DNA of 64,000 nt from Planctomycetota bacterium (GCA_020845475.1 JADLFN010000046.1:12997-76996); one strand, 5' to 3'; positions 10,011 through 63,179 are shown, counted from the first letter of the stretch. Numbers and translations: made by a program. Notes: generated from the sequence alone by a model not told the origin.

Positions 10011-11357
10011 TTACTTCGCCAGCAGCTCCTTCTCGATGTAGCTGGTGTGCACGGTGCCATCGATGAAACGTTTGTCGTTCATGATGCGCAGGTGCAGGGG
10101 TGCGGTGGTCTTGACGCCCTCGACGCGGAGCTCGGTGAGCGCGCGCTTCATACGGGCGATGGCCTGCGTTCTGTCGGGCGCGAACACCAGCAGCTTGCCG
10201 ATCATTGAATCGTACGTCGGCGGAATCGTGTAGCCCGCTTCGATGTGCGAATCCCAGCGCACGCCAGGCCCGCCGGGGATGAACACGCGCGTGATCTTGC
10301 CGGGGCAGGGGCGGAAATCGTTGTCCGGATCCTCGGCGTTGATGCGGCATTCAATCGCGTGGCCGCGCACTTCGACATCTTTTTGCGAGAAGGGCAATTT
10401 CTCGCCCGCCGCAGCCATGATCTGGGCGCGGATCAGGTCCGTGCGCGTCACGAGTTCGCTCACCGGGTGCTCCACCTGGATGCGCGTGTTCACTTCCATG
10501 AAGTAGAAGTTGTTCTTCGCATCAACCAGGAATTCGCACGTGCCCGCCGTGGTGTAATTCGCGGCCTTCGCCAGCGTCAGCGCGGCTTCGCCCATTTTCT
10601 TGCGCAGCTCGGCGGTCATGATCGGCGAGGGCGCTTCTTCGACAAGCTTCTGGTGGCGGCGCTGCAAGCTGCAGTCGCGCTCGCCGCAGTAAACGAAGTT
10701 GCCGTGCGTGTCCACGATCATCTGGATTTCAACGTGGCGCGGGCGCTCAAGATATTTCTCGACGTAAACGCTGTCATCCTTGAACGCGATTGAGGCTTCG
10801 CTCTTGGCCTGCAAGAATCCCTGCACGAGCGCGATTTCGTTGTGCGCCACGCGCATGCCGCGCCCGCCGCCGCCGGCGGCCGCCTTGACGATCACGGGGT
10901 AGCCGATGTTGTTGGCAATCTCGACGGCCTGCTCTTCGCTTTCGACGTTCTCTTTCACGCCCGGCAACATGGGCACACCCACGCGGCCCGCGACTTCGCG
11001 CGCGGACGTTTTGTTGCCGAGCAGGCGAATACTTTCAGGCGAAGGGCCAATGAACGCGATGCCGGAGCTGCGGCAGACTTCCGCAAAATGCGCGTTCTCG
11101 CTCAGGAAGCCGTAGCCGGGGTGGATGGCGTCAACGTCAGTCACCTCGGCGGCGCTCATGATGCGCGAGATATCGAGGTAACTCTTGGCGCTGGGCGCGG
11201 GGCCGATGCACACGGCCTGGTCGGCCAGCTCAAGGTAAGGCGCGCCACGGTCGGCTTCGGAGTAAATGCACACGCAGGCAATGCCCATCTCGCGGCAGGC
11301 GCGAATGATGCGCAGGGCGATTTCACCACGGTTGGCAATGAGGATTTTTGAGAACAT
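10011..11357 (-). CDS. accC: acetyl-CoA carboxylase, biotin carboxylase subunit
   Basis: MFSKILIANRGEIALRIIRACREMGI..., full-length ATP-grasp biotin carboxylase, 448 aa. Confidence 0.97.
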   Translation of the reverse strand: MFSKILIANRGEIALRIIRACREMGIACVCIYSEADRGAPYLELADQAVCIGPAPSAKSYLDISRIMSAAEVTDVDAIHPGYGFLSENAHFAEVCRSSGIAFIGPSPESIRLLGNKTSAREVAGRVGVPMLPGVKENVESEEQAVEIANNIGYPVIVKAAAGGGGRGMRVAHNEIALVQGFLQAKSEASIAFKDDSVYVEKYLERPRHVEIQMIVDTHGNFVYCGERDCSLQRRHQKLVEEAPSPIMTAELRKKMGEAALTLAKAANYTTAGTCEFLVDAKNNFYFMEVNTRIQVEHPVSELVTRTDLIRAQIMAAAGEKLPFSQKDVEVRGHAIECRINAEDPDNDFRPCPGKITRVFIPGGPGVRWDSHIEAGYTIPPTYDSMIGKLLVFAPDRTQAIARMKRALTELRVEGVKTTAPLHLRIMNDKRFIDGTVHTSYIEKELLAK

Positions 11358-11363
11358 GGGGTA

Positions 11364-11391
11364 GGTCGTCGGTAGTCGGTCTTCGGTCGTC
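11364..11391. repeat. heptad array GGTCGTC GGTAGTC GGTCTTC GGTCGTC (left arm of the inverted repeat bracketing the four-helix-bundle gene)
   Basis: Four tandem 7-nt units. The reverse complement matches 11813-11840 at 24 of 28 positions. Confidence 0.85.
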
Positions 11392-11406
11392 AGTACACTT
11401 CTGCGA

Positions 11407-11793
11407 TCATCTCTCTTGGGCCAGTTTTTTCTCCTGCCAGCGGATCAGCCCATTCAGCAGGCGGCCGACGGTACTGCACATCTCCTTCGCACCTTCAAAG
11501 CCAGTCGCGCCCACATACCCAAGCCGATGCGCGATGAAGAGTTGTGTCTCAACCTCCATCAGTGAGCCATAAGCAATATTCAAGTGCCTCAGGAACTCCC
11601 TGCCGGAACCCGATTGCGCTCGTCCTTGACCCTCACTCACGTTTGACGGAATCGAAACGGCCGCGCGACGAATCTGAGAGGTCAGGCCGTAAAGTTCTGT
11701 CTTCGGCCAAGTCTGGGACGCACGATAGATCAGCTCCACCAACTCAATTGCCTTCTGCCAAGCCTCCAGGTCTTGATGAGATTTCGCTGTCAT
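11407..11793 (-). CDS. four-helix-bundle protein (23S rRNA intervening-sequence protein family)
   Basis: MTAKSHQDLEAWQKAIELVELIY...QIRRAAVSIPSNVSEGQGR...EFLRHLNIAYGSLMEVETQL is the family signature. Start moved to ATG 11793; the ORF-track extension to 11976 overlaps accB. Confidence 0.85.
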   Translation of the reverse strand: MTAKSHQDLEAWQKAIELVELIYRASQTWPKTELYGLTSQIRRAAVSIPSNVSEGQGRAQSGSGREFLRHLNIAYGSLMEVETQLFIAHRLGYVGATGFEGAKEMCSTVGRLLNGLIRWQEKKLAQER

Positions 11794-11812
11794 AAAGCAG
11801 CCTGTCTTTTCC

Positions 11813-11840
11813 GATGACCGACGACCGGCTACTGACGACC
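11813..11840. repeat. heptad array GATGACC GACGACC GGCTACT GACGACC (right arm)
   Basis: Four tandem 7-nt units complementary to 11364-11391 (24/28). Confidence 0.85.
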
Positions 11841-11843
11841 GCG

Positions 11844-12302
11844 TTACGCCGGCTTCACCAAAAACAGCGGCTGGCCGTATTCGACCGACTGCCCGTTCTC
11901 GACCAGAATCGCGGCGATCGTGCCTTCCATTTCCGCCTTGATCTCGTTGAACACCTTCATGGCCTCGATCATGCACACCGTGGTGTCCTTGTTCACGGCG
12001 TCGCCTTCTTCCACATAGCTGGGCGCTTCGGGGTTGGCCGCGCGGTAGAACGTGCCCACCATCGGGCTCTTGATCGCGATCGTGCCCGCCGGCTGCGCGG
12101 CCGCCGCAGGTGCGGCCTGAGCCGCCTGGCCCGCCGCCGGCGCAGGTACGGCCGCCATGGGCGCCATGGCGGGCATCACGCGCATGCCGCCGTCGTATTT
12201 CTTTTTCAGGCGGATCTTCTTGGCGTCTTCGACCAGCTCGACTTCGAGCAGGTCGTTCTTGTTCATCAGTTCAATGAGACGATTAATCTCGTCCAGGTCC
12301 AT
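11844..12302 (-). CDS. accB: acetyl-CoA carboxylase biotin carboxyl carrier protein
   Basis: Ala/Pro linker followed by ...VCMIEAMKVFNEIKAE (biotinyl-Lys motif EAMK). Confidence 0.95.
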   Translation of the reverse strand: MDLDEINRLIELMNKNDLLEVELVEDAKKIRLKKKYDGGMRVMPAMAPMAAVPAPAAGQAAQAAPAAAAQPAGTIAIKSPMVGTFYRAANPEAPSYVEEGDAVNKDTTVCMIEAMKVFNEIKAEMEGTIAAILVENGQSVEYGQPLFLVKPA

Positions 12303-19901: not shown

Positions 19902-19925
19902 TCGTGTCCTTCGTCTTTGGTTGGG

Positions 19926-19967
19926 CGATTGTCGATTGCCGATTGCCGATTGTCGATTCGGAATTGC
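19926..19967. repeat. tandem heptad array CGATTGT CGATTGC CGATTGC CGATTGT CGATTCG GAATTGC
   Basis: Six consecutive 7-nt units in the spacer between the M50 protease stop (19996) and the small ORF start (19901). No inverted partner seen nearby. Confidence 0.85.
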
Positions 19968-21069: not shown

Positions 21070-21151
21070 GGCACTAGTTACCCGTTCTCAGAGCGCAGTT
21101 CCAAGGGCAGCACGCACAAGCATTAACGCTGCCCCAACTTAAGGCAGTCCA

Positions 21152-21172
21152 CTGATAATTGATAACTGATAA
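21152..21172. repeat. short heptad array CTGATAA TTGATAA CTGATAA
   Basis: Three 7-nt units immediately upstream (gene sense) of the M50 gene and 5 nt from the stop of the lipoprotein gene. Confidence 0.7.
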
Positions 21173-21176
21173 ACGG

Positions 21177-21599
21177 TTAGCTGCCGGTTTTCGCAGACGG
21201 TTTGGCTTTGGGCTTTTCGCCGTCGGCGGCGGGCTTGCTGCTTTGAAGGCCCATGCGCGCCTTCCACTCCGCCATGCGCGCCTGGCGGCGCAATTCCTGG
21301 CGCGCCTCGGCACCCTGAAGCGGCCGTCCTTCGCTGTCCACCGTCAGGTCCTTGCTCATGGGCTTTTCGCCCAGCTTGCGCTCGGAAATGTCTTCGCTCA
21401 GGTGAGGTTTGATCGCCGCGTTGTGCTGCGGGTGGGGCTTGACCCAGCTCTTGTCGGGGTGAACGCCGTCCACACGCGCGGGCTCAACGTAGCCTTGCGG
21501 CGGCGCACCCTGCACGCGCGCAATACCCGGCCCGGACATGCCGCAACCCACGCTGAAAATCAGCGCCGCTATCGTGAACAAAAGAGCGACAATGCGCAT
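21177..21599 (-). CDS. putative lipoprotein, hypothetical (140 aa)
   Basis: MRIVALLFTIAALIFSVGCG lipobox, then a low-complexity charged tail. Start moved to ATG 21599. Confidence 0.6.
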   Translation of the reverse strand: MRIVALLFTIAALIFSVGCGMSGPGIARVQGAPPQGYVEPARVDGVHPDKSWVKPHPQHNAAIKPHLSEDISERKLGEKPMSKDLTVDSEGRPLQGAEARQELRRQARMAEWKARMGLQSSKPAADGEKPKAKPSAKTGS

Positions 21600-21674
21600 G
21601 AAGCAGCCAAGCGGGGCGTGCGGGGAGGCTCTGATGTTACCGGCCGGGCGGCAAGTCGTCAATGCGGCCAAACG

Positions 21675-61792: not shown

Positions 61793-63179
61793 TCTTGTCC
61801 CAGTATTCCCAAAACCCCGGGAAGCTCTTGGTGACAACCTCGGGATGCTCGATCTTCAGCGGCGTTATTAATCCCGCGATGGCGAAACTCATGGCCATGC
61901 GGTGGTCCTCGTAAGTCTTGTTCAGGGGCGGGCGCCTTGTAGGGGCGACATATATGTCGCCCCTACCATCGATCTCCAGCCAGTCGGCGCCCGAACGGGT
62001 TGTCACGCCCAGTTTCGACAGCTCTTTGCAGAGTGCCGCGATGCGGTCGGTTTCCTTCACACGCAGCGTGGAAAGCCCCGTGAGCCGCGATGTGCCTTGC
62101 GCAAACGCGCACACCAAGGCCAGCGTCTGCGCGCAGTCGGGCATGGCGGACATGTCGGCTTCGATGGCACGCAAGGGGATTGTCCCCGCGTTTGGGGACT
62201 GTCCCCGTCTCGCGATTGAGCGCCGATGCGCATTCGTGATTTCTCGAACTGCGGGGACAGTCCCCTGCGGGGACAGTCCCCGAACACCCAACCCGTTCGG
62301 AAACTCTAGCACCTCGCAGCCCATGCGCTCTAACACATCCACGAAACGCACGTCGCCTTGAATATCTTGACGCGTCAAGCCATCGATCACGCACGTTGAG
62401 CCGCTGACCGCAGCCGCGCCCCAGAAGTAACTGGCCGCCGTGGCGTCGGGCGGGCATTCGTAGCGCTCGCAGCCGTAGGTTCCCGGCTTGACCACAAATC
62501 GCCGGTAGCCCTCGCGCTTGATGCACGAATCCGGCAGACCAAAAGCGCGCATCACGTTGAGCGTGATATCGACGTAGGGCTTGCTCACCAGTTCACCGCG
62601 AACTTCGATCGTGACGCCCATGCTCACCATGGGCGCCACGAGCAATAACGCCGAGAGAAACTGGCTCGAGACTTCGCCACTGAGCAAGCATGTGCCGCCG
62701 CGCAAACTTGCGCCCTCGATTTCGAGGGGCACGCAACCCGGCTTGCCTCTTTCGGTGATCTTGGCGCCCAGTTGCCGCAGCGCCGCAATCAAATCGCCCA
62801 TCGGCCGCTCGCGCATGCGCTTGTTGCCGTCGAGTATGAACCGCCCCGGCGTCACGCACAGAAGCGCGCAAGCGAAGCGAGTCGCCGTGCCAGCCGCGCC
62901 GGTGAAAATCGAAGCACGGCCTTCGCGGGCCGTGGCCTTGGGCCTGGCCGGCGGCTTGAGCTCCACATTCGCCCCGCGACCACGCACGCTCCAGCCCAGA
63001 TCCGCCAGCACATTGAGCATCAACGCTGTGTCATCGCCGGGCGAAAGATTCGAGAGAGAGCAAGGCCGGCCCGCCAAAGCCGCGCACACCAGCGCGCGAT
63101 TGGCAAAACTCTTCGACCCGGGCAGCGACAGCCGCACGTCAAAGGGTTGAGTGATGGGAGTGAGCGCGCGCGATTTCAT
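61743..63179 (-). CDS. aroA: 3-phosphoshikimate 1-carboxyvinyltransferase (EPSP synthase) carrying palindromic in-frame insertions
   Basis: LPGSKSFANRAL, ..MRERPMGDLI.., ..LRVKETDRIAAL.., ..YEDHRMAMSFA... The frame is intact across the repeat-derived segments at 62175-62276 and 61939-61966. Confidence 0.93.
   Translation of the reverse strand: MKSRALTPITQPFDVRLSLPGSKSFANRALVCAALAGRPCSLSNLSPGDDTALMLNVLADLGWSVRGRGANVELKPPARPKATAREGRASIFTGAAGTATRFACALLCVTPGRFILDGNKRMRERPMGDLIAALRQLGAKITERGKPGCVPLEIEGASLRGGTCLLSGEVSSQFLSALLLVAPMVSMGVTIEVRGELVSKPYVDITLNVMRAFGLPDSCIKREGYRRFVVKPGTYGCERYECPPDATAASYFWGAAAVSGSTCVIDGLTRQDIQGDVRFVDVLERMGCEVLEFPNGLGVRGLSPQGTVPAVREITNAHRRSIARRGQSPNAGTIPLRAIEADMSAMPDCAQTLALVCAFAQGTSRLTGLSTLRVKETDRIAALCKELSKLGVTTRSGADWLEIDGRGDIYVAPTRRPPLNKTYEDHRMAMSFAIAGLITPLKIEHPEVVTKSFPGFWEYWDKITSQRSTRNKSTPPGP
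61939..61966. repeat. perfect 28-nt palindrome GTAGGGGCGACATATATGTCGCCCCTAC inside aroA
   Basis: The first 14 nt are the exact reverse complement of the last 14 nt. Encodes part of GRGDIYVAPTRR in a loop that is longer than the corresponding E. coli AroA segment as I recall it. Confidence 0.9.
62175..62281. repeat. composite element of four GGGGA(C/T)(A/T)GTCCCC palindromes inside aroA
   Basis: ggggattgtcccc 62175-62187, ggggactgtcccc 62194-62206, ggggacagtcccc 62253-62265 and 62269-62281. Translated in frame as LSPQGTVPAVREITNAHRRSIARRGQSPNAGTIP. Confidence 0.9.

Follow-up and report, generated by a model that had tools for sequence, protein, structure and literature searches.

A four-helix-bundle gene enclosed by inverted heptad arrays between accB and accC

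We analyzed a stretch of 64,000 nucleotides from a Planctomycetota bacterium (GCA_020845475.1 JADLFN010000046.1:12997-76996; hereafter the window) and focused on the spacer between accB and accC, in which a small gene encoding a four-helix-bundle (4HB) protein of the PF05635 family is bracketed by two inverted arrays of 7-nt units (heptads). We report a broad, specific and apparently undescribed association of the PF05635 family with heptad-repeat hairpins. As for the accB-accC element itself, we consider it rather probable that it is a stem-loop cassette of the type found as intervening sequences (IVSs) in ribosomal RNA (rRNA), recently gained, co-transcribed with accBC and probably excised from the messenger RNA (mRNA) by RNase III.

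An earlier note, made from the sequence alone, had placed a 128-aa 4HB open reading frame (ORF) in the 486-nt accB-accC spacer of the minus strand, and its coordinates and sequences proved correct. The features are listed below in the order of transcription.

11844-12302, minus strand: accB, biotin carboxyl carrier protein, 152 aa (PF00364, E 2.1e-23; ORF list)
11813-11840, minus strand: 5' arm, on the mRNA strand GGTCGTC AGTAGCC GGTCGTC GGTCATC, four G-rich heptads (inverted repeat, period-7 array)
11794-11812, minus strand: leader of 19 nt (GGAAAAGACAGGCTGCTTT), from the 5' arm to the 4HB ATG (sequence)
11407-11793, minus strand: 4HB gene, 128 aa, PF05635/TIGR02436, S23p/XCC0516-like, remote Avd homologue (profile matches)
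11392-11406, minus strand: trailer of 15 nt, from the 4HB stop codon to the 3' arm (sequence)
11364-11391, minus strand: 3' arm, on the mRNA strand GACGACC GAAGACC GACTACC GACGACC, four C-rich heptads (inverted repeat, period-7 array)
10011-11357, minus strand: accC, biotin carboxylase, 448 aa (PF02786, PF00289, PF02785)

The cassette, whose ORF is co-directional with accB and accC, fills the spacer nearly completely, from 3 nt past the accB stop codon to 6 nt short of the accC ATG. We confirmed the two inverted heptad arrays, which consist of four 7-nt units each, lie 421 nt apart and are complementary at 24 of 28 positions (86%). Both arms were detected as period-7 arrays by Tandem Repeats Finder (TRF), with 4.0 and 4.4 copies. 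The stem of about 28 bp that had been proposed to enclose the whole ORF was kept in the predicted minimum-free-energy and centroid folds of a 516-nt RNA, and the arm duplex reached -38.7 kcal/mol compared to -15.6 +/- 3.6 when one arm was shuffled. The z-score of the whole-molecule fold of this RNA (-0.05) is uninformative because the loop dominates, and the arm duplex energy was used instead. The score of the flanking inverted repeat was 16 at the cassette and at most 9 among the 51 other ORFs of the window, and when the cassette geometry was placed at random 3000 times, a score of 16 was reached only once. Since the identical architecture was observed in 10 independent assemblies of the source species, an assembly artefact is excluded.

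No strong Shine-Dalgarno sequence was present in the 19-nt leader. A consensus scan, which is uninformative for a Planctomycete, found no internal sigma-70-like promoter and only weak terminator-like matches. In the whole window, Rfam at its gathering threshold returned only a tRNA and no rRNA, PADLOC gave no match to a defence system, and no further 4HB genes were found.

Inverted heptad arms accompany PF05635 genes in many phyla

To analyze the generality of this arrangement, we collected by homologue alignment 80 loci, 79 of which could be evaluated, in species-representative genomes across many phyla. The flanks described at accB-accC recurred around other 4HB genes: inverted arms with a best autocorrelation lag of 7 were observed at 56/79 loci, spanning Acidobacteriota, Planctomycetota, Chloroflexota, Hydrogenedentota and others. 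The arms of these 56 loci had a median length of 30 nt (range 14-142). Each locus displayed its own variant of a 5'-arm unit with the consensus C/T-A/G-G-T/G-N-G/A-N, and the G-rich arm was the 5' arm in 52 of the 56. As an inverted repeat reads identically on both strands, this bias reflects a fixed handedness of the hairpin and not the orientation of the gene.

Ordinary genes do have single heptad arrays next to their stop and start codons, as observed here and as published (PMC4679880), and the G-type class of arrays is complementary to the C-type class, so that two ordinary arrays might merely seem to bracket a small gene. We judge such an incidental arrangement very improbable. Heptad inverted flanks were present at 71% of the 4HB genes and at only 4/428 (0.9%) of the other ORFs of the sampled loci, and one of these four ORFs is itself a divergent PF05635 gene. 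Moreover, the order of the units matches between the two arms of a locus, with a median match score of 17 within a locus compared to 7 for arms paired across loci, and at some loci the match is complete (L013, 33/33; L087, 31/31). The heptad type also follows the protein clade, as presented below.

The period of seven was specific. In 720 kb of related loci, we counted 250 arrays of period 7 and between 1 and 19 for each of the periods 5, 6 and 8-11, an excess of at least 13-fold. Heptad hairpins without an ORF, with loops of 2-130 nt, were common beside the cassettes. The cassettes usually abutted the stop codon of a co-directional upstream gene (-7 to +13 nt) and typically ended at most 25 nt ahead of the next start codon, distances that are approximate because the greedy ORF tiling mis-called the accB side (a shadow ORF). 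They were found between pairs of housekeeping genes such as pdhA/pdhB, queD/queE and accB/accC, the latter in a Tepidisphaerales metagenome-assembled genome (MAG; L057). Among the 80 sampled genome loci, accB/accC was the site of one.

We observed in one locus (L026, 2317-2766) a GCGGATT hairpin with a divergent PF05635 ORF, 1.3 kb upstream of the first 4HB gene; this ORF had been missed by the profile built from close homologues. Cassettes of two subfamilies, distinct in heptad type, can thus coexist in one locus. A metagenome search with the divergent ORF as query provided 70 evaluable loci of this second subfamily. Inverted heptad arms were present at 40/70, the 5' arm was G-rich in 39 of the 40, and nearly all arms were built from GCGGATT, GCGGAAT or GCGGAGT.

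Heptad units differed by at most one base in 76% of the pairs within the second subfamily and in 0% of the pairs that cross subfamilies. For the first subfamily, the correlation of protein identity with heptad similarity gave a rho of -0.34, with 0 of 500 permutations as extreme, in a test that did not control for host ancestry, so shared ancestry may contribute. Given the specificity of such arms for 4HB genes and the agreement of heptad type with protein clade, we conclude that arms and ORF act as one evolutionary unit, travelling or evolving together.

Upstream of the 4HB gene of a Thiodictyon MAG (L038, 3737-4447), we observed an array of about 200 nt made of GACGACC, GAAGACC and GATGACC, units as in the 3' arm of the window, with extra short hairpins on either side. 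Relatives of the 4HB protein were also encoded by 15 viral-classed IMG/VR contigs (L105-L119), about five of which had heptad inverted arms. Longer arm units occurred on two such contigs: L115 has a regular 8-nt unit (GGAACTAA), and L110 combines units of 7 and 8 nt (CGTTACA).

The accC gene and many genes downstream of cassettes start 0-25 nt past the C/A-rich heptad arm, and the genes starting just past the 3' arm (accC, with its gap at 11358-11363, and those of related loci) have no recognizable Shine-Dalgarno sequence. The 3' arm of the cassette may double as translation-initiation region of the downstream gene.

Resemblance to an ORF-bearing intervening sequence of 23S rRNA

The IVSs of rRNA lie in helices 9, 25 or 45 of 23S rRNA and are removed from the precursor by RNase III with no religation of the fragments, and IVSs with an S23p ORF are also present in Leptospira; ORFs within 23S rRNA IVSs were reportedly first described in 1993. 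The earlier note had likened the cassette to an rRNA IVS, and this likeness held for the IVS of Coxiella burnetii, whose S23p ORF is likewise enclosed by inverted heptad arms (CAGAAGA CAGATGA CAGATGA CAGAAAT-ATG before the ORF and TCTGTCC TCAGTCT TCTGCCA TCTGTCT TCTG after it; PMC4990558, Table S3). The sequence as we used it has a one-base transcription error inside the ORF, and the arms are unaffected. In vitro, RNase III cleaves within the 28-bp stem of this IVS at sites that have been mapped, and the heptamer is present in two or three copies depending on the strain (PMC4990558).

Both elements carry a PF05635 ORF in the loop and measure about 430-480 nt overall. Their stems of about 25-28 bp consist of inverted heptamers with a purine- or G-rich 5' arm and the same handedness, and both elements have a GC content below that of the host and are sporadic among relatives. 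By contrast, the Coxiella IVS lies in helix 45 of 23S rRNA and the cassette between accB and accC, the unit is CAGATGA in the former and GGTCGTC in the latter, and RNase III cleavage has been demonstrated for the IVS whereas it would be expected for the cassette by analogy. In addition, the Coxiella ORF is seemingly decaying, whereas that of the cassette is under purifying selection. Judged from its sequence, the cassette is the protein-operon counterpart of an ORF-bearing 23S rRNA IVS.

Occupied and empty accB-accC sites among relatives

The earlier note had pointed to a comparison of the accB-accC site in related genomes, and gene-free sites were indeed found in close relatives. Five related Planctomycetes (AccC 83-93% identical) possess an accB-accC spacer of only 72-84 nt without a 4HB gene, and the local order prolyl isomerase, accB, accC is maintained in all of them. 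Among the relatives compared, the cassette was found solely in the source species and its nearest sister. The orthologous cassette of this sister (L095/L096) encodes a 4HB protein that is 91% identical, and its stem exhibits one compensatory change from G-C to A-T. At the 5' end of accC, nucleotide identity was 92% for the sister compared to 79-85% for the empty-site relatives.

Three or four of the five empty spacers were themselves periodic. We detected some lag-7 periodicity in four (0.43-0.63; L098, L091, L097 and L094, the weakest). Four of the five fold as hairpins over most of the spacer, and the fold of L094 consists of two short hairpins. The site in L098 is a clear ORF-less heptad hairpin (GTCCGGC GTCCGGA GTCCGGA GTGCGGG ... 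TCGGGAC CCCGGAC CCAGGAC CCCGGAC).

Since the cassette is limited to the source species and its sister and the five relatives have a short spacer, a single recent gain, in which the cassette would have displaced the resident spacer, fits these sequences as the simplest history. The import by recombination of a foreign accB-cassette-accC fragment was also considered and was rejected, as the nucleotide identity of accB and accC does not drop near the cassette.

The four-helix-bundle protein

The ORF matched PF05635 with 120.9 bits (cut-off 33.8) over profile positions 1-106 of 106 and TIGR02436 with 116.6 bits (cut-off 24). PF05635 counts at least 8000 homologues among the matches listed. The family includes solved structures and, to our knowledge, has no known function. 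The closest solved structure was that of XCC0516 of Xanthomonas campestris (PDB 2GSC, E 4.6e-25), which is a pentamer of four-helix bundles. The motif RxxxSxxxNxxE, conserved in XCC0516 homologues (PMC3936711), is present as R43, S47, N51 and E54; these residues are invariant or nearly so in our homologue alignment and align to 2GSC.

With a dN/dS ratio of 0.05 against the ortholog of the sister species, the 4HB protein is under strong purifying selection. The ORF has a GC content of 55% compared to 62% in its flanks, and the predicted isoelectric point of the protein is 9.2. Profile searches detected no catalytic domain, PF05635 being the only match. The homologue bAvd, the accessory protein of diversity-generating retroelements (DGRs), binds nucleic acid. 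By homology with XCC0516 and bAvd, the protein probably forms a basic pentameric ring that binds nucleic acid, and the nucleic acid bound would possibly be its own heptad repeats.

The protein shares with bAvd the fold superfamily, a pentamer-forming four-helix bundle and a basic character. It also gave a weak match to NF033474 (DivGenRetAVD, E 1.2e-4), and the Pfam bAvd family was listed for homologues; these matches could designate the gene as the Avd accessory gene of a DGR. We hold this to be extremely improbable: the NF033474 match reached 22.4 bits against a cut-off of 80, the genes called in the 6 kb to each side include no reverse transcriptase, the cassette is not accompanied by a template/variable repeat pair, and the gene sits in a housekeeping operon.

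The XCC0516 locus of Xanthomonas

Orthologs from X. campestris and X. sacchari and the homologue from Dokdonella fugitiva are arranged as aroQ-accB-[4HB]-accC (L099-L104, L120). Their 4HB genes are flanked by GGGAATC x4 on one side and by four GATTCCC-type units on the other, the 3' arm touching the accC ATG, and XCC0516 likely uses a GTG start inside the 5' arm. The Xanthomonas locus thus resembles the cassette by its homologous protein, its identical accB-accC position and its four-unit inverted heptad arms at the start of accC. It differs by its unit, GGGAATC, and by an arrangement conserved across Xanthomonadales families, whereas the cassette was probably gained recently. GGGAATC has been described genome-wide in Xanthomonas, with 186 arrays and 70 convergent pairs, mostly of four units, and the 4HB gene is unmentioned there (PMC4692102). 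In the literature searched, the XCC0516 locus is not described as a cassette. With its accB-accC position, its GGGAATC flanks and a crystal structure, XCC0516 of X. campestris is a tractable system.

Such recurrence could indicate a domesticated operon component, in which the 4HB gene or its hairpin serves the expression of acetyl-CoA carboxylase, for example the AccB:AccC ratio. The accB-accC site is occupied in the Tepidisphaerales MAG and throughout Xanthomonadales, the GGGAATC x4 arms are kept across the families of this order, and the selection on the protein points in the same direction. We nevertheless consider a role in this operon improbable, as the gene is missing from five close relatives whose accBC region is otherwise syntenic, accB/accC accounts for so small a part of the sampled loci (1/80), and cassettes of the same type lie between pdhA/pdhB, queD/queE and cmr3/cmr2 as well as inside 23S rRNA. 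Some cas operons are reported to contain PF05635 genes, one of which separates cmr3 from cmr2 (PMC3936711), a placement that fits a cassette inserting between the genes of operons.

Proposed processing of the cassette and evidence against it

In the IVS-type reading that we favor, the cassette would be transcribed along with accB and accC by read-through, its 28-bp stem would form in the RNA and, by analogy with the Coxiella IVS, RNase III would cut this stem. This cleavage would free the 4HB mRNA and leave accB and accC as separate messages, whose expression it could uncouple, as the earlier note had suggested. With such processing, cassettes within essential operons or rRNA could be tolerated.

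Several observations weigh against an RNase III-excised, recently inserted cassette. Clear arms were absent from 23 of the 79 related 4HB genes, and 4 of the 28 stem positions of the cassette are mismatched. In the 56 stems, G.U mismatches (50) were about as frequent as A.C mismatches (54). We found no target-site duplication, the outer flanks (TAA-CGC/arm and arm/TACCCC-ATG) sharing no bases, and a profile search detected no transposase domain in the cassette. Identical copies of the cassette at other sites were not evident, the nearest non-orthologous homologue being 62% identical. Finally, cassettes recur at accB/accC in three lineages, and the Xanthomonadales keep this position throughout, which could mean an acc-linked function rather than neutral tolerance.

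A bias towards G.U, sought as a signature of selection at the RNA level, thus gave no signal, and these stems do not reveal selection on the helix of the sense RNA. As the stem mismatches show no such excess, the complementarity of the arms is probably kept at the DNA level, for example by slippage and arm-to-arm conversion, and not by selection for RNA wobble pairs.

Other heptad arrays of the window and published heptad families

The earlier note had also reported heptad arrays at 358-461, 19926-19967 and 21152-21172 as possible related footprints. All three are real, with the following limits.

355-466, no strand assigned: ORF-less heptad hairpin with GACCAAT-/ATTGGTC-type arms (fold -56.3 kcal/mol)
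19917-19967, no strand assigned: single heptad array CGATTGC/CGATTGT of about 5 units without inverted partner, between minus-strand genes
21151-21172, no strand assigned: three-unit heptad array ACTGATA (a rotation of TAACTGA) without inverted partner, between minus-strand genes

Two minus-strand genes flank the hairpin at 355-466, and 3 nt separate it from the stop codon upstream. The hairpin is near-perfect, with arms of about 36 nt (358-392/430-462), a loop of about 35 nt and the C-rich arm first, so that its handedness is opposite to that of the 4HB cassettes; its unit differs as well. The ORF at 21177-21671 (minus strand) has its stop codon 4 nt away from the array at 21151-21172. As for the relatedness of these arrays to the cassette, they belong to the same broad heptad class, and ORF-less heptad hairpins do occupy the empty sites of relatives. 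By contrast, the opposite handedness at 355-466 does not support it, and neither does the comparison of arms with nearby arrays: 10% of the 4HB arms were within 1 mismatch of an ORF-less array of the same locus (51 same-locus comparisons), compared to 9% for arrays elsewhere. Arrays without an ORF do, however, resemble each other when they belong to one locus.

For decades, the over-representation of heptanucleotide repeats in bacteria has been regarded as odd and has lacked an explanation. The array at 430-462 is, as we take it, a rotation of the unit TTGGTCA of STRR2, one of the cyanobacterial short tandemly repeated repetitive (STRR) sequences reportedly described by Mazel et al. in 1990. 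TAACTGA heptamers lie next to start codons in Beggiatoaceae, cyanobacteria and Bacteroidetes, with no link to a protein (PMC4679880), and a GGGGATT family is found in Nostoc (PMC4692102). The functions proposed for heptad arrays are G-quadruplex formation and post-transcriptional regulation, with no protein partner tied to them (PMC4692102; PMC4679880). These published families resemble the cassette arms in their tandem 7-nt units, commonly about four, in their intergenic position near stop or start codons and in their frequent arrangement as convergent inverted pairs. They differ in that their arrays enclose no gene and in that PF05635 is unmentioned. The arm unit of the cassette, GGTCGTC/GACGACC, matches none of the published heptad units, and the literature searched does not connect PF05635 genes in general with inverted heptad arrays.

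The repetitive extragenic palindromic (REP) sequences and their REP-associated tyrosine transposases (RAYTs) offer another model, in which the 4HB protein would recognize, spread or maintain heptad hairpins at the DNA level, the gene-bearing hairpin being the autonomous copy and the ORF-less hairpins and arrays its non-autonomous derivatives. As in REP/RAYT systems, a single-copy gene lies between inverted short repeats, the repeat is, at least in Xanthomonas, also dispersed between genes, and its type co-varies with the protein clade, a co-variation that here persists down to about 55% protein identity. The same genomes are rich in heptad hairpins without an ORF, which also occupy the orthologous empty site, and the arms of the Xanthomonas 4HB gene consist of the very unit of the 186 dispersed arrays and 70 inverted pairs of that genus. 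The presence of the cassette varies among close relatives, the GC content of the ORF is lower than that of its flanks, cassettes are also found on viral-classed contigs, and the homologue bAvd binds nucleic acid. However, RAYTs belong to the HUH/Y1 transposases, and the 4HB protein, which matched PF05635 only, lacks any known catalytic motif; in addition, the cassette has tandem heptads where a REP has a single palindrome. No target-site duplication is visible, and the ORF-less hairpin of the window differs in unit and has the opposite handedness. Arms and dispersed repeats match in Xanthomonas, but no such match was observed across the multi-locus test, in which the 4HB arms were as dissimilar to the ORF-less arrays of their own locus as to others. 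Overall, we regard a REP/RAYT-like system as unlikely, without being negligible.

A wider proposal would join this model with the IVS-type cassette, and we advance it tentatively, as one that may well not hold. PF05635 proteins and bacterial heptad hairpins might form one pan-bacterial system, in which the protein would recognize its cognate repeats in DNA or RNA form. As the autonomous unit, the gene-in-hairpin cassette would spread into operons and rRNA genes, RNase III excision would make it harmless, and the ORF-less arrays would be non-autonomous. If so, the hundreds of ORF-less arrays per genome (STRR, GGGAATC, TAACTGA) would be derivatives of cassettes, and the system would constitute a novel type of element, mobile or self-maintaining, that lacks a conventional transposase. 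If the link between the protein family and the hairpins is general, it would join the puzzle of PF05635 function with that of heptad repeats, and rRNA IVSs would be one landing site of a far wider cassette. It would also call for caution before 4HB genes in operons, for example in cas loci, are taken as functional partners of their neighbors.

Additional repeats in the window

Elsewhere in the window, at 62180-62290, we observed four copies of the palindrome GGGGAC(A/T)GTCCCC, two of which form a perfect 16-nt tandem (CTGCGGGGACAGTCCC x2.1, TRF score 66). These palindromes could be an operator or a REP-like element.

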